Below are positions 35,431 through 63,459 of a DNA stretch of 64,000 nucleotides, in pieces (position 1 is the first letter of the stretch; the number at the start of each line of letters is the position of its first letter). Source of the stretch: Schmidtea polychroa (lineage: Eukaryota); contig CM097885.1 of assembly GCA_044892525.1 (NCBI GenBank), positions 242,420,001 to 242,484,000 of the forward strand, in the 5' to 3' direction. A program made the position numbers and the translations under genes. A model generated the notes under the pieces. The model ran no database searches and was not told where the DNA came from. It was given only the letters and a program-made list of their open reading frames with translations.

Positions 35431-35763
35431 TATTGTTGGGCTGAGCCGAAGGGTAACTGGGAAATCAGGTTAAACTTAACTAAAATAAAATAAAAAAATT
35501 AAAATAAATAGATTGACGAAAAAAATAAAATAGAATATAAGAAAAAGCAATAATTAGAAAATAAGAATTAAAACAAAAAATATAAAAATAAGAACAATTA
35601 AATAGGACAATAGAATGACGAAAAATAACGTAAAATGTAGCAGATAACAAAGAAATTAAGGAAAATAAATAAAAACACAATAAAAATAAAGAAAATAGGA
35701 AGAAATAACTCAAAAACAAGAAAAATAAATTAAATTAATAAAATAAGGCGGTACTCAATTCTG

Positions 35764-35851
35764 ATTGGTCCGCATAAACGAAAAATACCTATATAAGTAA
35801 ACCGCAAACTCACTATAGTCAATGTTAAAACCAAACCAATTACAGGTAAGA
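35764..35851 (+). promoter_or_regulatory. Putative LTR promoter and first splice donor
   Basis: ATTGG (reverse CCAAT) at 35764, TATATAA at 35790, CAG|GTAAGA donor at 35846 (second CAG|GTAC at 35903 after a 25-bp duplication). Function inferred. Confidence 0.55.
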
Positions 35852-37901
35852 AATAGTATTAAGTAATGTTAAATGTTAAAACCAAACCAATTACAGTTAC
35901 AGGTACTCGACAATCCAGACAATCAACCGACACTCAGACGACTATTAGGAACAGTTCTATCGACGATCAATTCATATAACCGATTTGATTAGTGTTTATT
36001 TCGGCTCAGCCTTTGGAATCACCGAATTTTTCAAACGATAAGTAAGGATGTGTTGCTATTGTAAAATTTGGTAAATGTTTTTCAAGGATTAAATATCTTA
36101 TTATATTAACGTAACATTTGAATAAAACTTCTCCATTCAATCTAAATTTTTTAATGGTAATATAGTTTCGTGAGTTAATTTAAAAGCTAATGATATATGA
36201 ATATTTATGATATGTTTTGTCATCGAACGTATTGATTATGATAAAATTATATTTGAGAAACGTGGAGTTGAGGAGACCCACGCCATGGTGTGAGGAGCCT
36301 TCGGGAGCTCAGCCGGCGGGTGTGGATCTCTTCAATCACGCAGCTGACGTGGGCCGGAATGTGGGGGTTTCCTCACGGGTCCGTCGCTGAAGGAAGTAAA
36401 ATGCTGCAAGCACGAGTTTAAAGTATAGAGGAATGCATTCCAATATTGAAAAGTAGAGTAATCTTAATTGAAAATGACTGAGGTGGCTACAAATTCTTAT
36501 TAGACATCACACTCTGAAATTTCACCCGACATCAGAAATCGTATACTTGCATCAACTGACACTCTATCTTCTAGTGGCAAAATATTCTTCTATCAAAACT
36601 CACGTCAATAGAGAAACTGAGTACTAATATGTTCATTAAGTGTAAAATCATAATATAGGAAGCATAAACGAAGATTTATTCAACAAAAATTTTAGTGCGA
36701 ATATATTTTTCAACAAACCCTTTAATTTTTTTTCATTTCTCCTGAAAATCTACAATAGTGGCAACATGAAGTTCTTTCTGTAAACGACACTTTCGACCAA
36801 TATAGGTGAAACTCTTTTGAATGAGTTGCTGTAAATATCCACGAAATCATAACATCCAAATTGAAAACGGAGGAAACTGCACATCATGAGAATAAATTCC
36901 AACGTCCATGCTCGATGAGAACTAATCATAGGTAGCATATTGAATAAACGAAATAAATCTAACTCGCTGTGTGAGATGATCAGCTGTAACCCTTTAACGT
37001 AGATAATGAGAGAGCATACGAGACCAGTCACACGCATTACTACACATAAATACACGCTTACATATGCCACATGCATTATTTTCCCAGTCAGCTAATGACG
37101 CTGAGAATAAAAGTTGAAGTACACGCACACGACGTAATTAACTCCGATCGATATCTAACTTTCAGATTCATGTTATTAATGATTTCTACGAGTGAGCTAT
37201 GCATTACCGGATGACTGTTATCAATTAGCTAGATTTTATAGATTAATTGCACAAGTAAATTCCATAACAAAAATGAATAGATCGATTTTTAGGATAGGAA
37301 TAAAATTCTAATCATACTCGAATCCTTAAAAATCTAATGGTAGCACAGTGATTGAATAGGTTTTCGATTTTCATATACCAATATGAGTTACGATTTGAGG
37401 TAATTAATTTAAGGAGCATTCCCGCGGCACTAGAGAACTTTGTTTTTACGTTTTTAAAGATAAATATCTGTATTCGAAAAGTTATATGTAAAAATGAATA
37501 TTAATTATTTAATTATGCAAACATTCTAATGTTTCCTAAACAATTTCTACGAAAACGATAACTCTAACGATCACTGGGTCAATACATTTGCGAGTCATCT
37601 TTCCCCTAAATATTTGAGAATCTCAGATAACAATAGGTAACGAATATTCTAAGTATAATCATAAAATTTTGGCAAAGTATTAATCAGATGTTAATTTCTC
37701 TTGCAACCCCAAATAGACATCCGAGAATTCACTGAGTGCAATTATAAAACACTATTTCTAACGGAACCATATCATTGACCTTTTATCCATTTTACTTAAT
37801 TTTTCGAAATTAATAAATGATCATGTCCCATGCTGGTTCAGTAGAAATCGCTGATCTTAATTCTTATTCTCATTGTTTTTTCTTTGTTACAGTTATCAAA
37901 A

Positions 37902-38645
37902 ATGTTGCCAAGCTCGAAGCCGTCGCTCAAACCCTGTTTCTCCTGTGCCGACAAAAACACCGTAATCCGAGAATTACAGGCCCAGATCGGTCGATATAGA
38001 AAGAAGATCGACGATCTGGAAGGTACATGGTTTAGCCCAGTACAAATGAAGGAGGTACAAAAGAAATTGTACCACAGCGAGCATTGTCGCGATGCTTTGA
38101 TAAGCGAAAGTAGAGCTCAGCGTAGCCTAATCAAAGAGCAGTCCGAAGCTTTACATAAAGTTTACGTTCAAGCCGCGACAACCCGGAAGATCGTTGGTAT
38201 CCCGATTAAAGAAGCGGACAATATCTTCCCCGTCCACCATGAACCTTCATTTAGTTCATCACCCTTATCAAAAAGATCTTGTCGTGAATGCGTGGAAGCC
38301 GACCTCTCCCCCAGGCCAACGGACGTACCTACTCCCGCCACCGGCAAGGTATTGCCATCAACCACGACGTCCTCAGAAATCTTGTCGGCCAACCCTTCGA
38401 AACCTAAACGTCGCCAATTATCCAGAGCGGAGCGTAAGAAGCGTCAACGTGAACGAGCAATCGTCAAACAATGGGAACTATCTTCCAACCACCCAAGTAC
38501 TTCGAATGATTCCCCCGTAACGATCGATCTAACTGTAGGGATCCCAGGGCGAATCATGTCTGCCGCTGGTGTGACGTGGGAGGAGAATGCCTCCGAGTTT
38601 TTTGATCTGGATGAACTATTGGCGGATGCAGAATGGGAGAAGTGA
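37902..38645 (+). CDS. LTR-encoded ORF (247 aa from ATG; 253 aa in track): CxxC + coiled coil, basic NLS-like tract, acidic/aromatic C-terminus
   Basis: Open in both LTRs; preceded by polypyrimidine acceptor TTGTTTTTTCTTTGTTACAG (AG at 37891-37892); followed by AATAAA at 38782 and a GT-rich tract. Confidence 0.75.
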   Translation: MLPSSKPSLKPCFSCADKNTVIRELQAQIGRYRKKIDDLEGTWFSPVQMKEVQKKLYHSEHCRDALISESRAQRSLIKEQSEALHKVYVQAATTRKIVGIPIKEADNIFPVHHEPSFSSSPLSKRSCRECVEADLSPRPTDVPTPATGKVLPSTTTSSEILSANPSKPKRRQLSRAERKKRQRERAIVKQWELSSNHPSTSNDSPVTIDLTVGIPGRIMSAAGVTWEENASEFFDLDELLADAEWEK

Positions 38646-39236
38646 GAATCGCAACACAATACAACCGTGCAGAGTGTTAATGGACAAATAAACTATCATG
38701 ACTCCTTTTCCTCTTAATCCATTTTCCACTAAGTGTACTCGTTATATAGTGCCATAATTATCTAGTGTATTATGATAATAGAATAAAGAAATTTGTGGGT
38801 TATTTCTTGTGGTTGTTTTGATTTAAATAGTTGCTAGAAAGGTTCAGAGTAGTGTTCACAAAGTGATTCATAAAGCGAGAGTAAATTTTGAGTTCGAGAG
38901 GCAATAGTCAATTTTGTGTCGAATTATGGGACAGGGTAGAGAGAGAATCTGATGGGGTAAACAGACGTAAGTCCTTCCATCGGCAGTCAGAAAGGGAAGT
39001 CGAGGCCTCAGTAAGGAGTAGTCCTAAGGTAGGGGCTCACCTGCTTACTGGAGTCTCGCCTGCATAGCACATTTCCAACGTGAAGCAATTCGCGGGTGCT
39101 ATGTTGGAGGGTAAGTTGTGCGGGGTCCTGCTCCGGGTTGACACGGGCGTATGTAGCGTGATGATATGGGCACGCATCCCCTAGACAAAGACGTAGATTG
39201 AGCAGAGTCAACCGAGCGCTACCCCAGCATAATTTT

Positions 39237-39254
39237 TGGGGGCTCAGCCGGGAT
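39237..39254 (+). promoter_or_regulatory. Primer-binding site, tRNA-Pro type
   Basis: TGGGGGCTCAGCCGGGAT matches the classical tRNA-Pro PBS TGGGGGCTCGTCCGGGAT at 16/18; lies 7 nt after the LTR end. Confidence 0.85.
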
Positions 39255-39521: not shown

Positions 39522-40007
39522 ATGACGGAATTCGCAGAACAGATGCAACAATTAATTAATTTCATTAATATAGAAAACGACCCTATTAGAACACTCATAC
39601 AAAAAAGAAAGCGAATCAACAGCATTCTACTCCAAGCAATCGGACACACACCAGTCGTACCTAATCACGTGTTATTGGCCGCAGGTTTAAGCCACTCAGA
39701 TGAAAAGATAAATCACGAAACAGTATATCAATGGTACCTAAAACGACTAAAAAACCCGGCCCTAAATCTAGAATACGAGCGAATAAAAGATCAACTACAT
39801 ACAATATCAGAGGCAATCGAACAAAAGATACAAGAGAAACTCACCAAATTACGAACCTGTCTGTCTTGCAATCTTCGCCCTATACGCATACTATTCTTAC
39901 CTTGTGGACACCTCAGTCATTGTGAAGAATGCGTGAAAGATCTGAAACGATGTACAATATGTAAAAATGGGATAAAAGAAACCCATATGGTTTATTATGG
40001 TGATTAA
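39522..40007 (+). CDS. IAP-type C-terminal RING (C3HC4) protein without BIR domains
   Basis: C-x2-C-x11-C-x-H-x3-C-x2-C-x6-C-x2-C at the extreme C-terminus (CLSC..LFLPCGHLSHCEEC..CTIC), the spacing of cIAP/XIAP-class RINGs; strong acceptor TTTTTTCTTTTCGCAATAG two nt before the ATG. Confidence 0.85.
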   Translation: MTEFAEQMQQLINFINIENDPIRTLIQKRKRINSILLQAIGHTPVVPNHVLLAAGLSHSDEKINHETVYQWYLKRLKNPALNLEYERIKDQLHTISEAIEQKIQEKLTKLRTCLSCNLRPIRILFLPCGHLSHCEECVKDLKRCTICKNGIKETHMVYYGD

Positions 40008-40572
40008 AACGACTAACCAGATGCAGTGACGTATATGCGCATTAAATTGATAAAAGACCTTTGAATACGAATATATGTACTTTTAAGTGTGAAGTAACTT
40101 TAATGTTTAATTTTAGTCTCAGGATAAAAAAAAATTTTTTTTTTGTTATGAATTAGATATTTTATCTCTTTTAATTACATCTTTGTTTATGAGATCGAAT
40201 GAAGAAGAATAAAACTAACGTGGAATTAGTCCCAATATAGGATATAAGAGTATAAACCGAGCCACCTTCGGGCGGTACGTTCTATCATAAGACAAACCAA
40301 TTGGGAGGGGATAACTGATCAACCCAAGTAAGAAGCGTAGGGCGGGGTACCACCGCAAATGATGAGAAGTTTCTACGACATGACTGATCACCATGCCAAT
40401 GTAGAAATGGATCATCGCGATCGTCGTGCGTTTTGAGCAAGGGGGGAAAGGGGAAACACTCTCAAGCGGTAAAGATTAAGTCGACAAATTAAAAGTAGAC
40501 AGAGAAAATGGTAATCTTGAGTAAAAGAGGAAAAGAGAAGTAGAATCATGCAGAGTGAGGAATATTAAAGCC

Positions 40573-40870
40573 GAGCTGTTAAATAGTCCAGCCGGTCAAG
40601 GAAAATGAAAACTGAGCTGTGAAAAGTCCAGCCAGTTCGGAGATATTGAGACCGAGTTGTTGAATAGTCCAACCGGTCAGAAGGAAGAAGATTGAGCTGT
40701 TGAATAGTGCCAGCCAGTCGTAAGATCGAGTTGTTGAATAGTCCAACCGATCAGAAGGAAGAAGATTGAGCTGTTGAATAGTGCCAGCCAGTCGTAAGAT
40801 CGAGTTGTTGAATAGTCCAACCGATCAGAAGGAAGAAGATTGAGCTGTTGAATAGTGCCAGCCAGTCGTA
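40573..40870 (+). repeat. Leader tandem array: 8 subunits of 34-41 bp forming a 74-bp higher-order repeat
   Basis: Core GAG(C/T)TGTTGAATAGT(G)CCA(G/A)CC starts at 40573, 40614, 40654, 40694, 40728, 40768, 40802, 40842. Confidence 0.92.
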
Positions 40871-41707
40871 AAGGCCTAGAAAAGCGAGAAATAGCAGTTA
40901 AGCTACAATGAGATAATATTTAAATTAATAGCGAAATGGAATATTAAAGCTAGCTAGAAACAAATTGAATGTAATTACGAAATTTGAGTTTAGAGAGGAA
41001 ATAAACGAGCTCGTGGAAAAGATGATGGATTATAGTGAAAGAGGGAGGGGAAAAAGGAAATGAATTAAAGAGATAATGGATAATAACGAATAGGTGAAAT
41101 GATGATAATGAGTAGAAGAGGAAAGTAACTAACTAATTAAAGGGATCCCAGTGAAGTAGAGAAACTCTACGGAATATTTTTTTGGTTGAACCGGGAAAAT
41201 ATATTTTTATTGGTTCCAGAGTAGAACCGAGTGAGATAATAGTAAATACGAAAAGTAAAATAGCGACAACAGCGCAAAAGGAATAGGAAAACGAAAGGGG
41301 GTAATAAGCAGAGACCGACAACGACCTATTTATACTATAATTGATAAAGATAGATAATTATTATGACTTTATAGATAATTGTTACTACCCCATATAGATA
41401 ATTTAAAATCGACAAAAAATATGGGCTGATGGGAAATTATAACCCGCGGAAAAGATTTCACAAAAGATAGGGGAAAAACAAACAGAAACCTAAAAGGTGT
41501 CTGTGTTTGAATGTTGCAGAAAGAATGATGAAGTCGTGTAAGCAGATGCAACACGAGATCATTCTTTCATTTTAGATATCAAATCAAGCCAGCCAATCAA
41601 GCCAATCCAGAACCTGCACAAAAGGAATTCGAGGAAATCGACAATCGACCAAGAATAAATCCATTCAGAACCCGCACCGAGAAACACAGCAACCGGAAGA
41701 CTCCAGA

Positions 41708-42825
41708 ATGGAAGAAGATACAGATAGCGACATCTCCAACTTCGAACGAATCACCGATATATTCAACCTCATAGTATTAGCAGCCATCTGTCAAGGACTA
41801 GTAAATCTCCTCAGAATCGCAGTAGCAGACTCATACCGAACAATTTACGAAGGAAACTTCATCAGAACCCAATCCACCCAATTCAGTAGCCGCTAATTAC
41901 AAGGAAGCGTAAGAAAAGAATCACGGATAAACCCCATCTCAGATCATCGAGTAAGTCAGGCGACGTATTATTTTCAGGAGACGAATTACAACAACTCAAA
42001 AGAGGACGATCTATTAAACATCAAAGAGGAATATCACAAGGAGCAAGAAGAACCAATCAAGTACCCATATTTGACCAAGAAAATCCCGGATATACCCCTA
42101 GTCGATCTCGAAGCAGAGAAAGTCTGTCCGATATCACTAATAGTTTAGCAACGTCAACCGAAGAATTATCAGCCCAAAGTTTAGTCACATCGTTAGATAA
42201 TTTAAAAGAAACAGACGAATCTAGAACACCAATCATGACGAATGTCGTAAAAACCGACGAGTATAAAGAGAAGTTCAGAGGAGAACCGTTCAATGGAAAT
42301 GCAAACAAGTTAGCAACGTTTATAACTAATTTTGAAGTTTATATCACGGTGTGTGGATGGACACCCGAAGCAATTAGCAAAAGGATGCCGTTGTTTTTGT
42401 GCGATAGCGCATTAGAAGTATATTTAGAAGCTAAAGAGAGAGATACGAAATTAGAGAAGTGGGAAGATATCAAAACATTCTTGAAGAAAACCTTCGGAGC
42501 CAGTAAGCCAATCAACCAGGCGTTGGGCGAACTAGCAAATAGGAAACAAAGAGCAAACGAATCGATAACATTATATGCCAGTGAATTACGGAGATTAGCG
42601 AAGAAAGCAATGAATGGAAAATTACCCGAGGAAAATTTGATCGGCTATTTCATAGAAGGATTACGCCGAGAAGAAGTAAGAGCCTCAGTAGGTTGTCAAA
42701 TGTGCAAAACGTTAGAGGAAGCCATAGATTGGGCTACAAGATGCGAGCTCCACCTTCCAGCTCAAATGAATATTATGCAAGAAGATGGGAGGAGAGCGAC
42801 AGCAACAATCAGGAACCGAAAATGA
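41708..42825 (+). CDS. gag: Gag N-terminal region and capsid domain (5' part disrupted)
   Basis: FNGNANKLATFITNFE..W..F..RKQRANESITLYASELRRLA..FIEGL fits a Ty3/gypsy capsid; the capsid frame is open from 41890, and an upstream ATG ORF at 41708-41896 is in another frame. Confidence 0.85.
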
Positions 42826-44807
42826 ACCAATTTATACCAGGAGCGCATCAAATTTTCAAACCACCACAAGGACGATCAAATGGGAATAATGGTAATCGTA
42901 ACAACCTGAATAATGAGAACAATTTTAATAATCGACGAAATTTGAACGATAACAAGCAATGCCGAACATGCGGTAAACCAGGACACTGGGACAGAGATTG
43001 TTATAGAAATGCAAATTGTAATCGTTGCGGACGGCGTGGACATACGGAAAATGTATGCCAATTGAGAGGTTGTTTTAACTGTGGTCAGCCAGGTCACATC
43101 TCCAGAGACTGCCGAGAAAGGGGCCAACCACAACGACCACCACAGCGAAATACTAATTACATGTCGAATCCGCAACGACAAAGTAACCCTAGTGAAGGAA
43201 AACAAATGAACGTTATGCAGGAAATCTCACAAATGAAACAGATGATGCAACAAATGATGAGACCAAGACAAGAACCAGCACCACAACAAACCCAGAATAT
43301 ACGTATGATGAGGAGTACCGAAAATCTCAACAGTTACGAAGTACATCAACATGTACAAGAATGGCAAAGACTACAGGCCGAGGAAGAGAGGATAAAACAA
43401 GAACGCAACCAACAACGACAAGAACAACCATTGCGAATAAATATGATGAAGTTAGTAAAAGACATGAAAAGCCAGTACTGTTACAATTACGGGAAAAACC
43501 CAAGGGTAGTACCCATGACTGAACCAGAAAAGGTAAAAGAAACAACAACGGAAAGGAAAACAGAGAATTCAACCACGATCCTAAAAGGGAACCAGAGAAT
43601 TCAGAAAATATTCTGGAAAAAGATAAAAGATAAAATAGAAAAGAAACATGAAGAAACGGAAATAAGAATAAAAGAGGAAAACAACCAAAACAAGGAGCAA
43701 ATCAGTCAGCTAAACCACCAAATGCTACAAGAATTGGAATCAGAAGAAACAACGATATTCGAAAGAAGGAAACTAAAGCGAGTACCACGGATGAGGAATC
43801 TGCGAATCAACATGATGAAAAGGACAAAAGATGCGACATCGTCAGACGAAGAGGTAGACTATGTGAGCAGTTTGGGTGGAGAAATACTACAGCTAAACGA
43901 AACTAGGGAACCTCCAAAGGGGGAAATCAAAGAGGAAGAAAGCGAAAGCGAGATAACCAGTGAAAGTGAAGACGAGGATATCGAAATAAAGTTGAGAAAA
44001 GCGAGGGAGGAAGCGATAAAACAAGTAGCTGAAATACTCCCGGTGGTAGTGAGAAACCAAGAGTTCATCGATGTAATACCATTCAGGCGATTCGTACAAA
44101 AAGTGATGAAATTGGAAAGAAACGAGAAAGATTTAATACCAAGCGAAGAAAAGTTGATAATAAAAAAGTATATGGAAAAAATGAAGCAGGTCGATACCAC
44201 TCGATATGTAATAAAGATCGGAACGAGTAAAGGACTTGAGAGAATATGGATTAAAAACACAGTCACCGACGAACTTTTCGATTGGATACGAGAACACTTA
44301 GGTAGCTCGAGGAAAACGGAGTACCTATACCAATATCAAGGAGAGCAAGTTAAACCAGATATGCACTTAGTAGACGCACTGATCTGGCCAGGAGAAACGC
44401 AAATACTAAAGTTGCACAAAGAAAAACAACCAGCCAACCTTTACGATTGGGCTAAAGATGCCAAGGCAGAATATGATTTTAATATCAAATTGAAATTAGA
44501 ACAAATAAAACAATGTACTCTGAGACGAAACCTGGACAAGCTGATCAAACAAATTCAAGAACAAGTAGAAGACAACTGGGATTTACTCATCACCAGACGA
44601 GCCCCAGCCATATACGAACTAATGAGCCGATTGCGAGATACAGAATTGCTCCGAATGAGTGATTGGAGAACCATAAATTTGATTCACAAATATGGAAGGT
44701 TAAAAGAAACCCAGCCACAGAAGTTAGAAATAACCATATGGTTACCGAACGAAGAGAAACGACGAATAAAAAAAAGGTACGTAGCGAAAGTAGTGATGGT
44801 ATGGTAG
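42693..44807 (+). CDS. Gag continuation: three CCHC zinc knuckles, Q/E-rich coiled region, ubiquitin-like domain 1 and start of domain 2
   Basis: CRTCGKPGHWDRDC (42960), CNRCGRRGHTENVC (43017), CFNCGQPGHISRDC (43071); joins the capsid frame by a -1 shift near 42790. Confidence 0.88.
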   Translation: MSNVQNVRGSHRLGYKMRAPPSSSNEYYARRWEESDSNNQEPKMNQFIPGAHQIFKPPQGRSNGNNGNRNNLNNENNFNNRRNLNDNKQCRTCGKPGHWDRDCYRNANCNRCGRRGHTENVCQLRGCFNCGQPGHISRDCRERGQPQRPPQRNTNYMSNPQRQSNPSEGKQMNVMQEISQMKQMMQQMMRPRQEPAPQQTQNIRMMRSTENLNSYEVHQHVQEWQRLQAEEERIKQERNQQRQEQPLRINMMKLVKDMKSQYCYNYGKNPRVVPMTEPEKVKETTTERKTENSTTILKGNQRIQKIFWKKIKDKIEKKHEETEIRIKEENNQNKEQISQLNHQMLQELESEETTIFERRKLKRVPRMRNLRINMMKRTKDATSSDEEVDYVSSLGGEILQLNETREPPKGEIKEEESESEITSESEDEDIEIKLRKAREEAIKQVAEILPVVVRNQEFIDVIPFRRFVQKVMKLERNEKDLIPSEEKLIIKKYMEKMKQVDTTRYVIKIGTSKGLERIWIKNTVTDELFDWIREHLGSSRKTEYLYQYQGEQVKPDMHLVDALIWPGETQILKLHKEKQPANLYDWAKDAKAEYDFNIKLKLEQIKQCTLRRNLDKLIKQIQEQVEDNWDLLITRRAPAIYELMSRLRDTELLRMSDWRTINLIHKYGRLKETQPQKLEITIWLPNEEKRRIKKRYVAKVVMVW

Positions 44808-53900: not shown

Positions 53901-54613
53901 GAAATCGAGACGGGAAGAGAATAACGAACGTTAAAGGAAAAGAGGTGCACCTAGGAAAAGGTGGTGAAGTAGTAATAACGCAGCTCCAACCAAGAAAAGA
54001 ACACAAAGTCTGTATTTCAAGATTAGGACCAGGTGAGAGATGCCATCAATATGTGACGCAGCAGCAGCCCCCGAAAGAATACACGGTTTGTATCTGGAGG
54101 AACGAATCAAAAAGGGAATGCCGACGATACCCGGGGAAAAGAGGGAAGAAAAGAAAAAACCACGACGAAAAGGACGAAGGAGGAAAGCACAAGAAAACCG
54201 GCGAGGAAGCTCAGGACAACTATGTTTCGGAGGAAGAGATGGGAAAAATACAAAAGATGGCAAAGGAGGGTATGAACGAGGAAATAGCAAGAATACGAGA
54301 GATGATGAAAGGAAATGGCAAAAGAGGAAACGAGAAAAGTACAGAAGCGATATCAACATTAACAAACAAGGAAAAACCAGAGAGTATAAGCGTGAAGCAG
54401 ATGATGTGGATCAGCGGGATAATAATAACAGGGGCATTCCTAATCATAACGGGGGGAACAATAAAAATAATTAAAGATAAACGACATCGCGGAGAACTAG
54501 AGATGACCCGAATCAGAAATTTCCAACATCGAGTGAAACGACCAAGTGATATCAAACAAGAACAGTGGGTGGAGGCCTGGAACGCTCAGCGCCCTCCAAA
54601 CTCACGTATATAG
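50897..54613 (+). CDS. Integrase C-terminus (GPY) fused to two ankyrin-repeat modules, a signal-peptide-like segment, an FN3-like domain and a C-terminal TM
   Basis: KGPYEI; GDTPLH, GYTPLMIAA, KNALHHA (51632-52160); RTPLQQA, GETAMMYAA, GNSTMDWA (52655-53180); MIIMIIMLTMIELVTA (53612); VVITQLQPRKEHKVCI; MMWISGIIITGAFLIITGGTI (54401). Confidence 0.88.
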   Translation: MSYGLQNVNSCINENEPMRECNMPMDLEYQPPISQYMEIDDYVTKFKERMQEIWETAGLNIKFYQESYKDLHDRKKNVKQHTFQTGDWVMIETPELIPGTTRKLQRNGKGPYEILFVGETNVRVKLVNNPFTRPIYVNVARCKSIPKTATSQPEGRTLTTRSQTYRMNMMQQLAEPITGRLGIQPSEAEKIVREVKIKLPGWAKDRLDFEILGGLLTMIENYANRERTHPLLRVVKSQWPILFTITDHYGDTPLHKLMKVGNNEQILETIEVFHDCKRSTEQENNQGYTPLMIAANRGKTKDIITALLDTGSKITTQDHERKNALHHAIEGKSTEAFTLLMELLSYEDNREVGNMYDGLLTAIKEKLTTITGVLITWRNPIKNNYMVNVNEAFTRGENTLMREAMKGHHLFEIPNQLLERGITFTNHKDEQLLKKRIDTFEKSIFQFITQVRNKYWETVSVLYMMDTMNNIRENYLDIIQILTAEERINNPTGKKMKIRHGKSREPKSQTNQTIANKVIETKSMSVDQRAIICKAKEVFFEEMLELSDEIILSEIIKTVHTYARDQTTNLDIGKIKTFLPRAFTMVTKDFRTPLQQAILAAKENRAITIMRILRDMGEETNTKNEQGETAMMYAAITKIHPKTLHILHQSGSRLDEKSNEGNSTMDWATIQPNLEMIRFICKNATREEVENICKNTAQFQWNTVRKNLEAMKLLLTWRVPQNNKYAINVNEFYENGENAMVKNTLTKGGTPKIILIVLNREDLKFTQNQNEQQRIGKHRRIQLRELVKEWNRKRHAATGRKEFEFEAKLARNRVLTAYRRLLNDINVEDDILNDSGGDKHDDNDGKGRKEDKGKREPEEDKPENKDSGTRREGNSPGTKTKEEEKPNNGKQRVCLPFTNKEIETNMIIMIIMLTMIELVTAHGGTRTIKETKEAENQDSKEEELKQEKKKQAQEQQWDLKEEWGLKKRCILGRCMSRAYQRLVLINEDTEPITEVRIQEVYRNRDGKRITNVKGKEVHLGKGGEVVITQLQPRKEHKVCISRLGPGERCHQYVTQQQPPKEYTVCIWRNESKRECRRYPGKRGKKRKNHDEKDEGGKHKKTGEEAQDNYVSEEEMGKIQKMAKEGMNEEIARIREMMKGNGKRGNEKSTEAISTLTNKEKPESISVKQMMWISGIIITGAFLIITGGTIKIIKDKRHRGELEMTRIRNFQHRVKRPSDIKQEQWVEAWNAQRPPNSRI

Positions 54614-54773
54614 AAAGGAATATGACTGTATATAATTGTAAAAAGTAAGTATATCTTATGTATATAACAGTACTATATCTTTATATAAGCGCGGTATCAA
54701 TATTATACAATAACGGGAATCATAAAATAAAATTAAATTTAGATAAGAGTTGAAAAGTGTATATAAATTAAGA

Positions 54774-55133
54774 ATGGAGCAAGGAAATAACGAAATGAAC
54801 CACAACACAGTAACCGAAGAATTATGGAAGCAACAATGTGCCGTATTAGCACAATTAGTGTCTAATTTGCAAGAACAAGGATTGACGATGCAAAAGAACC
54901 TAATCGAGAGTATGAACAGAGGATTTAGTTATTTGAAGATAATTGAAGACCAGAGGTTAAAAATCGAACAAATGCAAAGAGAAATAGAGAGGATAACCCA
55001 ATATAGCCGAAGACAGGAAATCGAATTGGACAGAATGATGGAGGAAGCAGAACAGACAGAAATAGAAGACTGGTCAGAATGGCTTATGAGTAGAGAGGAG
55101 GGCGGACACGAAGCCGACTCTTCCGAACCATAA
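54774..55133 (+). CDS. Accessory coiled-coil ORF A (about 119 aa)
   Basis: ATG at 54774, heptad-like Q/E/L pattern, acidic W-containing C-terminus, same codon style as the polyprotein. Confidence 0.65.
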   Translation: MEQGNNEMNHNTVTEELWKQQCAVLAQLVSNLQEQGLTMQKNLIESMNRGFSYLKIIEDQRLKIEQMQREIERITQYSRRQEIELDRMMEEAEQTEIEDWSEWLMSREEGGHEADSSEP

Positions 55134-55218
55134 ACCAAACCTAGCTTAAAATGTAAATAATTGTAAATAAAATATCGAACCTGTATCGATAAGAACTATA
55201 TGTATATATAATTATAGA

Positions 55219-56607
55219 ATGGATAAACGACAAAGAGAAGAGTTCAGAGAAATTGTCGAACAAGTCCGAAAATCTACAACGATCAGAGTACACAAACATG
55301 TTATGTGCGGAATATGTGAAAAGTTGCTAAAAGAACCCCACCAAACCCTATGTGGATGCAGATTATGTAAGGAATGTATCAGTGAAGCAATAAAGAATAG
55401 ACCACAGTGGTGCCCGGTGTGTAAAGAGACACTAATATCGAGTTTAGAAGACACTAACGAGGATAAAGCCGCAGTGAAAGACATGTTAAACACCAATCTG
55501 GGATGCAAAAATACCCCATGCGAATGGAAAGGAGTAATATGGAAAGTAGTGCAACATATGGGAGAATGTATGTACAGAATCGGCCAGTGTGAAAGGTGCC
55601 ATAAAACCATTCGAGCAAGCGAAGAAAAAGAGCATCAAAGCCAGTGTGAAGAGAGACTAGAAAGATGTAAACATTGTGGAGAAATAGATACGTGGAAAAA
55701 TCTCACCAGCAAACATCACAATGTCCAAGAGGAAAAGGTATGTGCAGAGTTCAGTGGGGAATGCCCGAACGGATGTGAGGAAGGGAGAATAATAAAAATA
55801 GCCCAGCACCTAAAAGAATGTGAGAAGAAAAGAATGATATGTGTACTAGGTAAATGGGGCTGTCAGAAACTACTACACCGAGGAGAGTTACCACATCATT
55901 TAGTAGAAAATGCTTCAACTCACGCAGAAAGGTGGTCGACTGCGCTACAAGAAAGTGAAGAGAAAGTAAAACAAATGGAGATAGAGATAACATCGTTGAA
56001 AGTGTTAGTCAAAGAACTACTAGAAGAAAGAGAAGCGTTCGAAGAAGCCCGAGCTAACATAAAGATGCAAATAAATCGTATAGAAATCAGCAATAATCAG
56101 GCCAAGGTGCTACATCAAAAGATAACTGAGATAAATCTAAATGAAGTAATACCAACAGCACCCTACGTGTGGAAAATAACGGGAGTGAAAGAAAAAATAC
56201 GAAAAGCCAAAACCGGAGAAGAGACAAAAATAACGAGCCCCGCATTCCAGTCTTGGAAAAATGGGTACAAAATGAAAATGAAGATATATCCCAACGGGGA
56301 CGGAACCGGATTAGATACACCCTTTTCGGTTTTCTTTCTTTTATGCAAAGGAGAATACGACGAAATAATAGAATGGCCGTTCCAGGCGAAGATCGACATC
56401 GCACTAATGAATGACCGAAACATCCACGAACAAAGCTTCAAGACAACGGGAAACCAAATGTGTTACCAGAGACCTACGGAAGAAGAAGGATCAGCAACGG
56501 GAGCACCTACGTTCATCCTACAACAAAAAGTAGAGGATATGGCGAGAAATAACACAGTATATATCAAGATGACTGTGAGGAAAGAGGGGAAGGGTAGAAC
56601 GGAGTAA
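55219..56607 (+). CDS. TRAF: Full-length intronless TRAF-family protein (RING - TRAF zinc fingers - coiled coil - MATH)
   Basis: CGICEKLL..CGCRLCKEC..CPVC; repeated C-x2/3-C..H..C fingers; coiled coil; MATH YVWKI..SPAF..GYKMKMKIYPNGDG..KGEYD..WPF..YQRP..G.PTF. Confidence 0.96.
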   Translation: MDKRQREEFREIVEQVRKSTTIRVHKHVMCGICEKLLKEPHQTLCGCRLCKECISEAIKNRPQWCPVCKETLISSLEDTNEDKAAVKDMLNTNLGCKNTPCEWKGVIWKVVQHMGECMYRIGQCERCHKTIRASEEKEHQSQCEERLERCKHCGEIDTWKNLTSKHHNVQEEKVCAEFSGECPNGCEEGRIIKIAQHLKECEKKRMICVLGKWGCQKLLHRGELPHHLVENASTHAERWSTALQESEEKVKQMEIEITSLKVLVKELLEEREAFEEARANIKMQINRIEISNNQAKVLHQKITEINLNEVIPTAPYVWKITGVKEKIRKAKTGEETKITSPAFQSWKNGYKMKMKIYPNGDGTGLDTPFSVFFLLCKGEYDEIIEWPFQAKIDIALMNDRNIHEQSFKTTGNQMCYQRPTEEEGSATGAPTFILQQKVEDMARNNTVYIKMTVRKEGKGRTE

Positions 56608-56746
56608 CCCATCGAATAATGTTGTATATAATAATCTGTATATATCGGTGTATATATCCAATAAAATATTATATAATAATAGTATGAAAAACCCTAAATA
56701 CGAAAACCCAAAAATGATGCGAAAATTTCCGAAAAAACAGTAACTA

Positions 56747-57544
56747 ATGAATAAAAATTTTTCCATGATAAAAAGATTGATCGATATCTATGATTTAGAA
56801 ATGACACAAGAGAAAATAACCGAAACTACGATAGCCCCAACCAATATCAACAAGACACAAATTCCCCGAGAATATAACGAAAAATGGAACAAAGTAATGT
56901 TCCAACTAACTAATCTCACCCGAAATCACATCGAAGAAGCTAGAGAGGATGAGAACAGTAAATATCAATGGCTAATACACAATTTAAGAGAGGAAGCAGA
57001 AGCATGTAAAAGAGCATCAAAATGGGCGTCATTAGAAAATACCCGCCAAGAAGCGCACAGCCACTACTTAAAGCAGCTGGTGCAGGAAGCGAGAAAGAGG
57101 CTCACTGACGAAAACGCAAAACGCGAAGCGGAAAAGCAAATAGAAGGGAGGAGAATGATGCACTTATTGGCGGAAGCCAGGAAATGGAAAAGACGAAACA
57201 ATGAAATGGAAAAAGAGATGAAAGAATTGCCCATGAGACTCAGATATGAAAGTGAACAGGGAAAATGGGAGGAAAATTTAATAATAAAGGAAGAATTGAA
57301 ACGGTTGAGAAAGGTCGCCGCCCGTAGCCAAACTTGGCAAACAAAAGCCATGGAATTTGAGCGACATTTGGCAATAAAATGCGACATAAGAGAGCACGAG
57401 AACGCCGCAATGGAAGAGATGATAACCCAACAAGCAGGACGGGTTGTGGAATTAGTGAATCAGGTCGTAGAGATGAAAAGAGACCTTAATGGATTACAAG
57501 GATCGCTGGAACAAAGAAACATGGTCCTAGCTGGAAAAAAATAA
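56747..57544 (+). CDS. Accessory coiled-coil ORF B (265 aa)
   Basis: Uninterrupted E/K/R/A-rich helical ORF; no family recognised. Confidence 0.7.
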   Translation: MNKNFSMIKRLIDIYDLEMTQEKITETTIAPTNINKTQIPREYNEKWNKVMFQLTNLTRNHIEEAREDENSKYQWLIHNLREEAEACKRASKWASLENTRQEAHSHYLKQLVQEARKRLTDENAKREAEKQIEGRRMMHLLAEARKWKRRNNEMEKEMKELPMRLRYESEQGKWEENLIIKEELKRLRKVAARSQTWQTKAMEFERHLAIKCDIREHENAAMEEMITQQAGRVVELVNQVVEMKRDLNGLQGSLEQRNMVLAGKK

Positions 57545-57566
57545 AAAATTAGAAAACGAGAGGAAA

Positions 57567-57857
57567 ATGTATACCGAAAATATTAAAAACTTGGAAATAG
57601 AAATTGAAAAATGGAAGGGCGACGAGAAAATCAAGGCCCTAGACAGACAAATAGAGGCGAAAGACGAAGAGACAAGGTACCTCACCTATCTGCTCGACGA
57701 GGAATTGAATATCACTAGAGCATTAGGAGATGAAGTCCATGAGTTGAGAGCCCAAATTCCCCAATATTACATACCTTATGACCCTATTGCTATCCAGCTG
57801 CAGGCATCGGTCGAGAGCGATGAGGGATACGTGGGCCAAGAGGAAACCTTCGTATAA
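57567..57857 (+). CDS. Accessory coiled-coil ORF C (96 aa)
   Basis: Short helical ORF 22 nt after ORF B; no family recognised. Confidence 0.55.
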   Translation: MYTENIKNLEIEIEKWKGDEKIKALDRQIEAKDEETRYLTYLLDEELNITRALGDEVHELRAQIPQYYIPYDPIAIQLQASVESDEGYVGQEETFV

Positions 57858-57978
57858 AAGGGATCAAAAAGATAAAAAACTAAAAATCGGGACGTATATC
57901 CCAAACAAAAAAAAAAAAAATTAAAGTATTGTAAAAGTATTCAAGGGATTGTAACCCAAACTATTAAATTTTATATAA

Positions 57979-58743
57979 ATGTATATGTATAAGTCGCACT
58001 ATAGCGCACCATTAACTGTACATATTATAGATATGAAAATCGAGGAAATAATAGAAATTATGAGCGACGTAGAAGAGGGAGAGATTGAGGCAGAAACAAC
58101 AGAAACACAAACGTTAAAGGCCGAGTTACAGGAAGAGAAGTACGAAAACGAGAGACTTGTAAACAAATATATAGAAGACCGAAAAATGATTAAAATACTA
58201 AAGAAGGAGTGCGAAGTGCTAGGAGAAGTAAAAAGAGAAGCAGAAGAAGAAAATGAATGGCTACAAGAACAACGAACACGAGGAAGAAATTGGGAAAAGA
58301 TTGCAGAGGAACTATGGCAAGAGAGGGCAAGCTTCAAAGCAGAGGAAGTAATCCAAGACTATTGGAAAACAGAGGCGAAGGAACGCCAAATAACTATAAA
58401 TAAATTAAATCGACAATTGGAAGAAAAACAACGAGAAAGTGAGGAAATGAAGAAATGGATTCGCAAATACCAAGAGATCGAGAGAAAACAACAACAACAA
58501 CAACGAAACCTTTCGCAAGAAAACGAACAAGATTTCCTACAAATCGAACTAAAAAGGAATCTCGATAACAAACGGGAAGAAATTAGAAGACTGGAGAAGG
58601 AAATAAGGCGCATGAAAAGGGAGGCCCGTGAAAAGGACAGACAGTTGGAAATGCTGCCCGAGTTAAGACACAGGGTCATTAAAGCGGAATCCACCTTGAT
58701 GAGAATCGCCGAAAATAACCCAAAATCAGAACCATTAAATTAA
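57979..58743 (+). CDS. Accessory coiled-coil ORF D (254 aa; start may be ATG 58033)
   Basis: Long E/K/Q/R heptad-rich ORF; no family recognised. Confidence 0.7.
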   Translation: MYMYKSHYSAPLTVHIIDMKIEEIIEIMSDVEEGEIEAETTETQTLKAELQEEKYENERLVNKYIEDRKMIKILKKECEVLGEVKREAEEENEWLQEQRTRGRNWEKIAEELWQERASFKAEEVIQDYWKTEAKERQITINKLNRQLEEKQRESEEMKKWIRKYQEIERKQQQQQRNLSQENEQDFLQIELKRNLDNKREEIRRLEKEIRRMKREAREKDRQLEMLPELRHRVIKAESTLMRIAENNPKSEPLN

Positions 58744-58779
58744 GGGTCACTAAAACCAATTGTAAATAAAACATAATGA

Positions 58780-59448
58780 ATGTATAATAGTATCATGCGA
58801 GGCGAGATGATGATAACAATGATGGTATTGATGATCCTGATGGAGAGCAAACAAATAAACGCCCAACCGAAAATCGTACGAGATTACCGAAATCAAAATC
58901 AAGAACCTAAACAAGAATCCGGCCAATGTACATGCCCTATGACAGTAAAAACCCATATCATCCAAACCATTCAATCAACCCGATCACACATCAACAACAT
59001 CCAAACAATGTGTAAAAAGAATCCCATTTGTAAAATGATAAACCAACAAATCCTCGAACAAATCCAACAATTCGACCAGTTGGAACAACAAATACAACAG
59101 GAGAATTTTGGAAATCTTGTAGAAAAGCCAAAAACAATTCCCGAAATCAATGACACCCATTACCTCATATATATAGTGATCGCAGAGACCCTCCTCCTAT
59201 GTCTACCAATACTCATGAAAATTTACGAAGTTAGAAATAGATGTAGAATCTCGACATCAATAAGAGTAACCTCAAACCAGAATCCTCAAGAAGTGCCCCT
59301 GACAAATCGTAACCCAACCCCATTCCGACCTCGAACCCCGAGTAATCAACCAATCCAGCCGAATTCCTATAGTCAGACCTATCTCAACATCAATACCCAA
59401 ACCAACCAACAGCCGCCAGCAGAAGCATCAATGGTTAACAGTTCATAA
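58780..59448 (+). CDS. Accessory type-I membrane ORF E (signal, CxC, coiled coil, TM, P/N/Q-rich tail)
   Basis: MMITMMVLMILMESKQINA (58807), QCTCP, Q-rich coil, YLIYIVIAETLLLCLPILM (59161). Confidence 0.75.
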   Translation: MYNSIMRGEMMITMMVLMILMESKQINAQPKIVRDYRNQNQEPKQESGQCTCPMTVKTHIIQTIQSTRSHINNIQTMCKKNPICKMINQQILEQIQQFDQLEQQIQQENFGNLVEKPKTIPEINDTHYLIYIVIAETLLLCLPILMKIYEVRNRCRISTSIRVTSNQNPQEVPLTNRNPTPFRPRTPSNQPIQPNSYSQTYLNINTQTNQQPPAEASMVNSS

Positions 59449-59665
59449 ACTCTAAGTCAAACATTTGTGTTATTATATGTGGAAACTTTTATTGTATGTA
59501 CAAACTATCACCTTAAGTGATACTTGCTTGGTCTTGATTTGACCTATATCTTAGAATAAAATTTTTTTTTGTGGTATAATTGTTCGATATATCCTTTTTA
59601 TGAATGCATGAAGTAAGATAACTATGCAATTGCGGGACGCAATTTTGATGGGTCCCCGAGTGATT

Positions 59666-62600
59666 TGTTGGGCTGAGCCGAAGGGTAACTGGGAAATCAG
59701 GTTAAACTTAACTAAAATAAAATAAAAAATAAAATAAATAGATTGACGAAAAAAATAAAATAGAATATAAGAAAAAGCAATAATTAGAAAATAAGAATTA
59801 AAACAAAAAATATAAAAATAAGAACAATTAAATAGGACAATAGAATGACGAAAAATAACGTAAAATGTAGCAGATAACAAAGAAATTAAGGAAAATAAAT
59901 AAAAACACAATAAAAATAAAGAAAATAGGAAGAAATAACTCAAAAACAAGAAAAATAAATTAAATTAATAAAATAAGGCGGTACTCAATTCTGATTGGTC
60001 CGCATAAACGAAAAATACCTATATAAGTAAACCGCAAACTCACTATAGTCAATGTTAAAACCAAACCAATTACAGGTAAGAAATAGTATTAAGTAATGTT
60101 AAATGTTAAAACCAAACCAATTACAGTTACAGGTACTCGACTATCCAGACAATCAACCGACACTCAGACGACTATTAGGAACAGTTCTATCGACGATCCA
60201 TTCATATAACCGATTTGATTAGTGTTTATTTCGGCTCAGCCTTTGGAATCACCGAATTTTTCAAACGATAAGTAAGGATGTGTTGCTATTGTAAAATTTG
60301 GTAAATGTTTTTCAAGGATTAAATATCTTATTATATTAACGTAACATTTGAATAAAACTTCTCCATTCAATCTAAATTTTTTAATGGTAATATAGTTTCG
60401 TGAGTTAATTTAAAAGCTAATGATATATGAATATTTATGATATGTTTTGTCATCGAACGTATTGATTATGATAAAATTATATTTGAGAAACGTGGAGTTG
60501 AGGAGACCCACGCCATGGTGTGAGGAGCCTTCGGGAGCTCAGCCGGCGGGTGTGGATCTCTTCAATCACGCAGCTGACGTGGGCCGGAATGTGGGGGTTT
60601 CCTCACGGGTCCGTCGCTGAAGGAAGTAAAATGCTGCAAGCACGAGTTTAAAGTATAGAGGAATGCATTCCAATATTGAAAAGTAGAGTAATCTTAATTG
60701 AAAATGACTGAGGTGGCTACAAATTCTTATTAGACATCACACTCTGAAATTTCACCCGACATCAGAAATCGTATACTTGCATCAACTGACACTCTATCTT
60801 CTAGTGGCAAAATATTCTTCTATCAAAACTCACGTCAATAGAGAAACTGAGTACTAATATGTTCATTAAGTGTAAAATCATAATATAGGAAGCATAAACG
60901 AAGATTTATTCAACAAAAATTTTAGTGCGAATATATTTTTCAACAAACCCTTTAATTTTTTTTCATTTCTCCTGAAAATCTACAATAGTGGCAACATGAA
61001 GTTCTTTCTGTAAACGACACTTTCGACCAATATAGGTGAAACTCTTTTGAATGAGTTGCTGTAAATATCCACGAAATCATAACATCCAAATTGAAAACGG
61101 AGGAAACTGCACATCATGAGAATAAATTTCAACGTCCATGCTCGATGAGAACTAATCATAGGTAGCATATTGAATAAACGAAATAAATCTAACTCGCTGT
61201 GTGAGATGATCAGCTGTAACCCTTTAACGTAGATAATGAGAGAGCATACGAGACCAGTCACACGCATTACTACACATAAATACACGCTTACATATGCCAC
61301 ATGCATTATTTTCCCAGTCAGCTAATGACGCTGAGAATAAAAGTTGAAGTATACGCACACGACGTAATTAACTCCGATCGATATCTAACTTTCAGATTCA
61401 TGTTGTTAATGATTTCTACGAGTGAGCTATGCATTACCGGATGACTGTTATCAATTAGCTAGATTTTATAGATTAATTGCACAAGTAAATTCCATAACAA
61501 AAATGAATAGATCGATTTTTAGGATAGGAATAAAATTCTAATCATACTCGAATCCTTAAAAATCTAATGGTAGCACAGTGATTGAATAGGTTTTCGATTT
61601 TCATATACCAATATGAGTTACGATTTGAGGTAATTAATTTAAGGAGCATTCCCGCGGCACTAGAGAACTTTGTTTTTACGTTTTTAAAGATAAATATCTG
61701 TATTCGAAAAGTTATATGTAAAAATGAATATTAATTATTTAATTATGCAAACATTCTAATGTTTCCTAAACAATTTCTACGAAAACGATAACTCTAACGA
61801 TCACTGGGTCAATACATTTGCGAGTCATCTTTCCCCTAAATATTTGAGAATCTCAGATAACAATAGGTAACGAATATTCTAAGTATAATCATAAAATTTT
61901 GGCAAAGTATTAATCAGATGTTAATTTCTCTTGCAACCCCAAATAGACATCCGAGAATTCACTGAGTGCAATTATAAAACACTATTTCTAACGGAACCAT
62001 ATCATTGACCTTTTATCCATTTTACTTAATTTTTCGAAATTAATAAATGATCATGTCCCATGCTGGTTCAGTAGAAATCGCTGATCTTAATTCTTATTCT
62101 CATTGTTTTTTCTTTGTTACAGTTATCAAAAATGTTGCCAAGCTCGAAGCCGTCGCTCAAACCCTGTTTCTCCTGTGCCGACAAAAACACCGTAATCCGA
62201 GAATTACAGGCCCAGATCGGTCGATATAAAAAGAAGATCGACGATCTGGAAGGTACATGGTTTAGCCCAGTACAAATGAAGGAGGTACAAAAGAAATTGT
62301 ACCACAGCGAGCATTGTCGCGATGCTTTGATAAGCGAAAGTAGAGCTCAGCGTAGCCTAATCAAAGAGCAGTCCGAAGCTTTACATAAAGTTTACGTTCA
62401 AGCCGCGACAACCCGGAAGATCGTTAGTATCCCGATTAAAGAAGCGGACAATATCTTCCCCGTCCACCATGAACCTTCATTTAGTTCACCACCCTTATCA
62501 AAAAGATCTTGTCGTGAATGCGTGGAAGCCGACCTCTCCCCCAGGCCAACGGACGTACCTACTCCCGGCACCGGCAAGGTATTGCCATCAACCACGACGT

Positions 62601-63459
62601 CCTCAGAAATCTTGTCGGCCAACCCTTCGAAACCTAAACGTCGCCAATTATCCAGAGCGGAGCGTAAGAAGCGTCAACGTGAACGAGCAATCGTCAAACA
62701 ACGGGAACTATCTTCCAACCACCCAAGTACTTCGAATGATTCCCCCGTAACGATCGATCTAACTGTAGGGATCCCAGGGCGAATCATGTCTGCCGCTGGT
62801 GTGACGTGGGAGGAGAATGCCTCCGAGTTTTTTGATCTGGATGAACTATTGGCGGATGCAGAATGGGAGAAGTGAGAATCGCAACACAATACAACCGTGC
62901 AGAGTGTTAATGGACAAATAAACTATCATGACTCCTTTTCCTCTTAATCCATTTTCCACTAAGTGTACTCGTTATATAGTGCCATAATTATCTAGTGTAT
63001 TATGATAATAGAATAAAGAAATTTGTGGGTTATTTCTTGTGGTTGTTTTGATTTAAATAGTTGCTGGAAAGGTTCAGAGTAGTGTTCACAAAGTGATTCA
63101 TAAAGCGAGAGTAAATTTTGAGTTCGAGAGGCAATAGTCAATTTTGTGTCGAATTATGGGACAGGGTAGAGAGAGAATCTGATGGGGTAAACAGACGTAA
63201 GTCCTTCCATCGGCAGTCAGAAAGGGAAGTCGAGGCCTCAGTAAGGAGTAGTCCTAAGGTAGGGGCTCACCTGCTTACTGGAGTCTCGCCTGCATAGCAC
63301 ATTTCCAACGTGAAGCAATTCGCGGGTGCTATGTTGGAGGGTAAGTTGTGCGGGGTCCTGCTCCGGGTTGACACGGGCGTATGTAGCGTGATGATATGGG
63401 CACGCATCCCCTAGACAAAGACGTAGATTGAGCAGAGTCAACCGAGCGCTACCCCAGCA
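59666..63459 (+). repeat. 3' LTR (3,794 bp)
   Basis: Direct repeat of the 5' LTR, followed by ATAT. Confidence 0.98.
62132..62875 (+). CDS. LTR-encoded ORF, 3' LTR copy
   Basis: Same ORF as 37902-38645 with five amino-acid differences (R>K, G>S, S>P, A>G, W>R). Confidence 0.75.
   Translation: MLPSSKPSLKPCFSCADKNTVIRELQAQIGRYKKKIDDLEGTWFSPVQMKEVQKKLYHSEHCRDALISESRAQRSLIKEQSEALHKVYVQAATTRKIVSIPIKEADNIFPVHHEPSFSSPPLSKRSCRECVEADLSPRPTDVPTPGTGKVLPSTTTSSEILSANPSKPKRRQLSRAERKKRQRERAIVKQRELSSNHPSTSNDSPVTIDLTVGIPGRIMSAAGVTWEENASEFFDLDELLADAEWEK

Follow-up and report, generated by a model that had tools for sequence, protein, structure and literature searches.

A giant envelope-bearing Ty3/gypsy element of Schmidtea polychroa: a recently inserted, now broken copy, most likely of a sister family within the planarian Burro group

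The main finding of this work was the identification of a 28.0-kb long terminal repeat (LTR) retroelement at positions 35434-63459 of the window, that is, of the stretch of 64,000 nucleotides of the Schmidtea polychroa genome (contig CM097885.1, positions 242,420,001 to 242,484,000 of the forward strand) analysed here. We consider it very probable that this element is a recently inserted and now broken copy of a multi-copy Ty3/gypsy family, which shares its gene order with a second giant family of the same genome (referred to as Burro1-like); the family of the window copy most likely belongs to the planarian Burro group as a sister family.

Boundaries, copy number and subfamilies

The element is delimited by the features listed below, which confirm the two LTRs, the primer-binding site, the ATAT target-site duplication and the 20.4-kb internal region (39230-59665) reported in a preliminary description of this stretch.

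35430..35433 and 63460-63463, no strand: left and right copies of the 4-bp target-site duplication ATAT, seen on both flanks
35434..39229, + strand: 5' LTR, 3,796 bp, with TG...CA ends, from the pairwise LTR alignment
39237..39254, + strand: primer-binding site for host tRNA-Pro(TGG), 7 bases past the LTR, 18/18 complementary
59666..63459, + strand: 3' LTR, 3,794 bp, holding the second copy of the LTR gene at 62132-62875

Counted in the alignment string, the 5' and 3' LTRs differ by 11 substitutions and one 2-bp indel. The primer-binding site is the exact complement of the last 18 bases (+CCA) of host tRNA-Pro(TGG), which is the primer tRNA of both giant families. The genes of this tRNA stand in long tandem arrays with a 475-bp period (G000:C1:130.90-130.95 Mb and from 133.14 Mb, L165), and a 22-base piece of it has 2,307 genome-wide matches at no more than one mismatch.

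Sister copies of the element measure 29.4-30.3 kb in 10/10 examined, compared with 28.0 kb for the window copy after a deletion; all ten have paired LTRs (98.7-99.95% identity over the aligned part) and are flanked by 4-bp duplications. Probes for reverse transcriptase (RT), TRAF and RING gave 40 scored matches each, the best of 865, 298 and 184 candidates, respectively; many of these are collinear, with order and spacing alike at many loci. A motif that precedes the 3' LTR once per element has, in the form of the window family, 184 exact matches in the genome, and the family has at least 184 copies. Its TG...CA LTRs, primer-binding site and short target duplication are those of Ty3/gypsy (Metaviridae-like) elements, as is its gene order, in which Gag is followed by protease (PR), RT, RNase H (RH) and integrase (IN) with their catalytic motifs.

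The window copy lies at 6% distance from the main subfamily. Hypermutation was considered as the source of this distance and rejected, since the changes are symmetric and mostly silent, which indicates a separate subfamily. Along the element, identity to the two closest sisters varies between 89% and 99% (L031, L045, L051 and L063 against window 41000-58000), and this variation suggests recombination between subfamilies.

The polyprotein, from Gag to the membrane tail

The polyprotein region of the window copy spans 41890-54613 and consists of the following parts.

41890..44807, + strand: part 1, Gag capsid, three CCHC knuckles, linker and first ubiquitin-like-looking unit (Pfam Retrotrans_gag, zf-CCHC)
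44663..46030, + strand: part 2, putative ubiquitin-like units and acidic linkers, ending at a 1.37-kb deletion near 46010
45990..47900, + strand: part 3, the last two thirds (C-terminal) of a class III fusion glycoprotein of chuvirus-like/gB type, with transmembrane anchor and tail, in frame with the protease
47901..51400, + strand: part 4, protease (DTGA), RT (LPD, YIDD), RNase H and integrase (HHCC, core) (Pfam and motifs)
51400..53500, + strand: part 5, two ankyrin-repeat blocks (Pfam Ank_2 E 1.3e-19; ratio of non-synonymous to synonymous substitution rates, dN/dS, 0.10-0.15)
53600..54613, + strand: C-terminus, predicted second type I membrane protein (two hydrophobic segments in the sister frame; dN/dS 0.08-0.16)

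The earlier estimate for this region was roughly 4,300 codons; it comprises about 4,240 codons and lies in six pieces because the window copy is broken. In the sisters, one continuous frame of about 4,730 codons (by coordinates) runs through Gag, the putative ubiquitin-like units, the Bcl-2-like domain, the class III envelope (env), Pol, the ankyrins and the membrane tail, in this order. This frame is open in 10/19 sister 5' stretches (a 20th, L050, was dropped as it held no element sequence) and in 11/20 sister 3' stretches, and both stretches are open in 6 of the 17 copies for which both were taken.

The envelope assigned earlier to a fusion glycoprotein was recovered as the Monjiviricetes family PF24664, with E 6e-50 in the window copy, which lacks the N-terminal part, and 1.7e-71 in a sister. 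The envelope has a dN/dS of 0.04, and its cysteines, a furin-like site and the hydrophobic anchor are retained. Alignments to sisters place the loss of the envelope start, together with the Bcl-2-like domain, in the 1.37-kb deletion near 46010. The predicted C-terminal membrane protein has an internal signal-like stretch, a Cys-containing ectodomain, a transmembrane helix and a short tail, and it has a positional counterpart in the Burro1-like family. A structure model of this ectodomain reached a confidence (predicted local distance difference test, pLDDT) of 37 and was not used, and the Atlas search with it gave no usable match. The ectodomain (window 53660-54397; L117:1202-2629) is made up of short Cys-paired beta-like units, and two copies of the unit seem to be present in the Burro1-like family.

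Accessory genes and the LTR gene

Six accessory genes lie outside the polyprotein and a further gene lies within each LTR.

37902..38645, + strand: LTR gene (open reading frame, ORF), 247 aa, with an N half resembling a coiled coil and, further, a patch of basic residues (11 K/R in 20)
39522..40007, + strand: accessory gene 1, 161-aa protein with C-terminal IAP-type RING and no BIR (Pfam PF13920 E 6.6e-11)
40554..40871, + strand: tandem repeats in the leader, 74-bp unit in 3 copies with a 40-bp sub-period (repeat detection)
54774..55133, + strand: accessory gene 2, 119 aa, coiled-coil-like, stop-free in 19/20 sisters
55219..56607, + strand: accessory gene 3, full-length TRAF (RING, zinc-finger region, coiled coil, MATH), 462 aa (Pfam)
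56801..57857, + strand: accessory gene 4, coiled-coil protein, about 350 aa in sisters (dN/dS 0.07-0.10)
58033..58743, + strand: accessory gene 5, 236-aa coiled-coil protein (dN/dS 0.09-0.16)
58795..59448, + strand: accessory gene 6, predicted to encode a small type I membrane protein with a signal-like start, Cys pairs and a single transmembrane helix (from the hydrophobic segment)

About seven accessory ORFs had been counted previously; the number is six, since 56801-57857 is one gene in the sisters and is split in the window copy by a frameshift near 57.55 kb, visible against 18/20 sister stretches. The RING of accessory gene 1 (C3HC4) has cIAP2 (E 7e-11), cIAP1 and XIAP as its best matches in the PDB, and the gene is stop-free in 8/10 sisters with a dN/dS of 0.09-0.18. 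For the TRAF, the best PDB matches are TRAF3, TRAF1 and TRAF2 (E about 1e-24), a homologue search gave one match (37%), and the gene is stop-free in 15/20 sisters (dN/dS 0.09-0.13). Together with the ankyrin blocks, both assignments made in the preliminary description are therefore upheld by Pfam and PDB matches. Accessory gene 2 is 33% identical to the ORF at the same position of the Burro1-like family, and accessory gene 6 is stop-free in 8/10 sisters (dN/dS 0.11-0.42).

The LTR gene, recorded earlier as one ORF in each LTR, is whole and stop-free in 19/20 sister LTRs, with dN/dS values of 0.09 and 0.16 and a third comparison that was saturated. It gave no Pfam match, and its Atlas matches were all under 0.9; a homologue was found in the Burro1-like LTR (30% over 115 aa, E 7e-8). 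All six accessory genes and the LTR gene are retained in most sisters, and purifying selection was found in all 13 segments tested against three subfamilies (dN/dS 0.00-0.42, with 2 of the 39 values undefined through saturation). This recurrence under purifying selection bears out the earlier picture of a complex env-bearing LTR retroelement with signalling and ubiquitin cargo.

Comparison with Burro elements

The review PMC6431247 describes planarian Burro/GYPSM1 elements of over 30 kb with a 4,873-aa polyprotein, and lists as their modules Gag, MATH, Ubi/SUMO-like, BCL2, an in-frame env, PR-RT-RH-IN, ankyrins, BIR and Smc-like coils. In its Burro section, the polyproteins are about 4,900-5,100 aa long with env between the Bcl-2-like domain and PR, BIR is named for Burro1-4, a dUTPase-like domain found by HHpred is placed between PR and RT, the env is related to the fusion proteins of mononegaviruses, and the elements are already proposed as proviruses. 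The window family resembles Burro1/GYPSM1 and Burro2-4 of Schmidtea mediterranea and the Burro-like element of Dugesia tigrina, as described there, in its size of about 30 kb and in having one polyprotein (4,700-5,100 aa), three CCHC knuckles in Gag, a Bcl-2-like and a candidate ubiquitin-like module preceding the in-frame env, PR-RT-RH-IN, ankyrins, TRAF/MATH, RING and coiled-coil (Smc-like) ORFs. It differs from Burro1 in having no MATH inside the polyprotein, from Burro1-4 in having no BIR, and from the D. tigrina element in that its TRAF is a full-length downstream gene rather than an upstream ORF. The LTR gene, the second membrane protein, the missing polypurine tract and the spacer motifs (see below) are unmentioned in the Burro section of PMC6431247.

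The Burro1-like family of the same genome (G000; loci L111-L113, L116-L118 and L149-L152) was used for a second comparison. Both families share the gene order from the LTR gene and upstream RING to the 3' cassette, as well as the tRNA-Pro primer-binding site, the LTR start and the pre-LTR element. Protein identity between them is 25% for the upstream RING, 38-40% for Gag, 60-64% for env, 75% for PR-RT, 72-74% for IN, 27-29% for the ankyrins and 29% for TRAF, and the last two accessory genes have same-position counterparts, although no tblastn match, in the Burro1-like family. Unlike the window family, the Burro1-like family encodes a MATH within its polyprotein and has a BIR-RING gene of 393 aa located between the TRAF and coiled-coil genes; its LTRs are longer and align with those of the window only in short A-rich patches, and it is more numerous (364 against 184 motif matches). 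A BIR probe gave 150 scored matches, mostly in frames of 392-393 aa, and at the two of these loci that were read the polyprotein includes a MATH domain and is followed by TRAF, BIR-RING and coiled-coil genes.

RT sequences were placed in a tree of 57 rows, with 12 from the genome and the top 45 of 126 usable public representatives, in which the window and Burro1-like families are sisters (Shimodaira-Hasegawa-like approximate likelihood ratio test, SH-aLRT, 100) inside a 16-row clade (99) that holds env-pol elements; this tree came from a quick search with SH-aLRT as its only support and a midpoint root, with neither bootstrap nor outgroup. The best public RT relatives of the window family are 54-58% identical.

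Apart from the design of this tree, several points weigh against the assignment to the Burro group or against single modules of the proposed architecture. The label Burro1-like denotes a match to the domain list in the review PMC6431247, not to a reference Burro1-4 sequence. Pfam detects no BIR in any ORF of the window family. A dUTPase-like domain was not detected; between PR and RT, a spacer domain of 100 aa is present, which gave no Pfam or phmmer-PDB match. The ubiquitin-like domains claimed earlier are present as a match, but a weak one (Pfam E 0.012 in the window copy and 5.5e-4 in a related family, both under the cut-off), and the ubiquitin-like look of the first unit in part 1 was judged by eye. 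For the Bcl-2-like domain, the Pfam values of 0.013 in a sister copy and 6e-5 in a related family are below the Pfam cut-offs; a 6-row profile had Bcl-xL as its best PDB match (E 0.003, BH2 region only), and the model is a helical bundle with pLDDT 65, so that the support for this domain in the family is weak but concordant. Likewise, the signal-like stretch of the envelope was seen by eye and falls under the hydrophobicity threshold.

Judged by its predicted gene content, the window family is Burro-like but not Burro1 itself, as both the MATH in the polyprotein and the BIR are lacking, and it could be the counterpart of Burro2, 3 or 4. The preliminary description had allowed that the element might fall within Burro with the same gene map, and this largely holds by way of the syntenic Burro1-like family, the exceptions being the in-polyprotein MATH and the BIR. 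What lies in the window is most probably a dead member of a sister family, new or as yet unnamed, whose kind is already in print.

Other related elements

Six planarian GAG-ENV-POL elements with gB-type env have been reported (Smed_errantivirus_1-6; PMC13524379). They resemble the window family in their Ty3/gypsy Pol, in the class III env between gag and pol and in their many near-identical copies, and the window family in turn has a class III env between gag and gypsy pol and several near-identical open copies. The env segments of Smed_errantivirus 5 and 6 appear nearest to the window and Burro1-like families, as judged by eye. The available part of PMC13524379 gives no LTR or primer site for these elements and treats neither accessory genes nor Burro. 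Chuvirus-glycoprotein elements of mosquitoes (PMC7642597) have the same class of fusion protein in an LTR element, but they are small and belong to BEL/Pao, whereas the window family is gypsy. In the S. polychroa genome, PF24664 has 2,581 candidates. Two smaller GAG-ENV-POL families of this genome (L121-L123 and L126-L127) have LTRs of 0.6-0.8 kb and carry, before env, a ubiquitin-like domain in one case and a Bcl-2-like domain in the other.

Transcription, splicing and priming signals

In the 5' LTR, a TATA-like box lies near 35791, a single splice-donor-like site follows 35845 and AATAAA stands at 38687 and 38782, and acceptor-like sites occur at 37892, ahead of the LTR gene, and ahead of the RING gene. 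These signals suggest that U3 is short, that R is long and that the transcripts share their first exon. An exact 25-base direct repeat is present in the LTR (35821-35845 and 35872-35896), so that the short stretch past the donor site ends in a second copy of the putative first exon.

Among the 3' accessory genes, an AG stands 1-4 bases ahead of each ATG, a pattern given here as a bare observation. The motif TGTA(A/C/T)ATA, picked after inspection, occurs 11 times in 883 spacer bases and 0 times in 4,169 coding bases (shuffled mean 0.27), and it occurs likewise in two other subfamilies and in the Burro1-like family. Spliced subgenomic RNAs would be the simplest reading of these spacers. Contigs of presumed RNA runs (X1, X6, X7 and X2 against window 50800-63459, and X1 and X6 against a copy of a related subfamily) showed, among the matches listed, neither a GT..AG joint starting in the LTR nor a shared leader, which bears neither way on splicing. 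One X1 contig begins at the AG before accessory gene 4, a start that chance can give.

A polypurine tract before the 3' LTR is usual among Ty3/gypsy LTR retroelements, though not strictly universal. No purine run of 7 or more was found in the 400 bases before the 3' LTR of the window copy, and its place is taken by the following feature.

59626..59665, + strand: conserved 40-base element with a 7-bp inverted repeat, a 3-base spacer and then a GC-rich block (exact-match counts)

This is the pre-LTR motif counted above, with 184 exact matches in the form of the window family, 364 in the Burro1-like form and 0 in reversed controls; it is kept in both families although their LTRs do not align. A second contact of the primer tRNA at this element was considered and rejected, as the duplex energy in the window family is no better than that of shuffles (122 and 168 of 300 reach it). 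For the Burro1-like element the duplex is marginal (13/300 shuffles reach the energy).

Proposed mechanism and way of life

We hypothesize that one long RNA from the LTR promoter would be translated into one chain of about 4,730 residues, in which Gag, Env and Pol follow one another without a frameshift, because a single frame is found in the sisters. The polyprotein has one strongly hydrophobic segment following the env ectodomain and two further hydrophobic segments close to the C-terminus, and these, together with the signal-like stretch before env, lead us to predict two passages through the membrane of the endoplasmic reticulum and a second surface protein. The signal-like stretch would put the class III envelope in the lumen, the anchor would bring the polyprotein back so that PR-RT-RH-IN and the ankyrins lie in the cytosol, and the C-terminal membrane protein would then arise from a second signal and anchor. 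The protease of the element probably cuts at a motif that recurs at 10 places of the polyprotein, most of them domain borders, including the capsid/nucleocapsid, env-tail/PR, RH/IN and IN/ankyrin borders; shuffled sequences had a mean of 1.7 and a maximum of 6 in 1000, a statistic that flatters the motif since the pattern was fitted by eye after seeing the sequence. Reverse transcription would start from tRNA-Pro, whose site is present, and integration leaves the 4-bp duplications observed. Accessory genes are likely to be expressed from spliced subgenomic RNAs, and the TRAF, IAP-type RING, Bcl-2-like and ankyrin modules probably damp cell-death and immune signalling of the host, so that cells carrying the element survive.

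Two ways of life are compatible with this identity. A quite plausible one, although we stop short of calling it probable, is that the element is copied within cells only, and that envelope and cargo are kept for spread from cell to cell or for benefit to the host rather than for free infectious particles. A one-to-one output of Gag, Env and Pol and a membrane-tethered Pol, as predicted here, would be unusual for a budding retrovirus. Furthermore, a protective effect on planarian stem cells has been reported for the BIR-RING protein of Burro1, B-IAP (Lee et al. 2026, as cited in PMC13465017). The RING protein of the window element resembles B-IAP as an element-borne IAP-type RING with a likely anti-death role, and differs from it, as far as B-IAP is described in that source, in lacking a BIR, in lying upstream of gag and in being known from sequence alone. 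The absence of a BIR gene from the window family speaks against purely intracellular copying, as does the strong purifying selection on the envelope, with cysteines, furin-like site and anchor all kept.

Rather unlikely, in our opinion, is the bolder proposal that Burro-group elements are true infectious complex retroviruses of flatworms. Their polyprotein would be threaded twice through the membrane, with Pol on the envelope tail and the second surface protein at the end of the chain; their plus-strand DNA would be primed from the conserved 40-base element in place of a polypurine tract; and an operon-like cassette and an LTR-encoded basic regulator would be expressed by splicing.

State of this copy and remaining alternatives

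Damage to the window copy comprises frameshifts near 42.8, 44.8, 50.95 and 57.55 kb, two in-frame stops and the loss of 1.37 kb. The shifts are seen against 18 to 19 of 19 or 20 sisters (19/19 stretches for both shifts in part 1 and 19/20 for that near 50.95 kb), and the stops at 49803 and 50742 are sense codons in 20/20 sister stretches. Judged by its reading frames, this copy cannot make a working polyprotein, and open frames remain for the RING, TRAF, two small coiled-coil, membrane and LTR genes. It is very unlikely that these breaks are assembly errors in a copy that is in fact whole. One shift (57.5 kb) does sit in a run of A, where long reads err, but two in-frame stops and a 1.37-kb deletion are atypical of read errors, the window LTRs differ by 11 substitutions against 2-9 in 10 sister pairs, and 11 of the 17 sisters with both stretches taken are likewise broken, at other places.

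Still less probable is a categorically new complex virus with an undescribed gene set, a reading that is largely refuted. The preliminary description had held the full architecture to be undescribed; nearly the whole module list and the in-frame env are, however, published for planarian Burro elements in the Burro section of PMC6431247, six gB-type GAG-ENV-POL planarian elements are given in PMC13524379, and the LTR gene, upstream RING, primer-binding site and pre-LTR element are common to the Burro1-like family. In favour of novelty are the lack of a BIR, the distance of the best public RT relatives and a set of traits not found in print, namely the missing polypurine tract with its 40-base element, the second membrane protein, the LTR gene and the operon-like spacers; the primary Burro papers (Grohme 2018) and Lee 2026 lay outside this search and may describe them. 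Finally, a one-off nested or chimeric assembly, with captured host genes lying by chance between two LTRs, would fit a polyprotein region in six pieces amid surroundings full of other transposons, but can be dismissed because the accessory genes, far from being absent from other copies, are kept in most sisters, each under purifying selection as in all segments tested, with identical gene order in the sisters and in two more distant subfamilies and with breaks private to the window copy.

Surroundings of the insertion

The sequence just left of the insertion (35317-35406) resembles an inverted piece of an upstream repeat (23877-23969, 78%), and the element probably landed in an older transposon because its left flank resembles this other repeat. 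Further features of the window are the following.

33235-34718, - strand: Tc1/IS630-type DNA transposon with 105-bp inverted ends and a transposase (helix-turn-helix and DDE_3) split by a stop near 34011
19197-19949, - strand: intronless-looking host ORF with a C-terminal Tctex-1 domain, its middle masked by N
10413-11565, 21517-25082 and 27085-29034: decayed pieces of hAT/Buster-like DNA transposons (DUF4371, Spin-doc zinc finger)
21517-22150/24001-24640: inverted pair of 640 bp

Significance

Giant env-bearing elements with death and ubiquitin cargo have been known since 2007-2019, and the finding is in itself modest. Nevertheless, two sister families in one genome that differ by a BIR-RING gene and an in-frame MATH form a natural pair for probing the function of this cargo. 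The absence of a polypurine tract across families whose LTRs do not align points, moreover, to an unusual step of plus-strand priming in these elements, which is testable.

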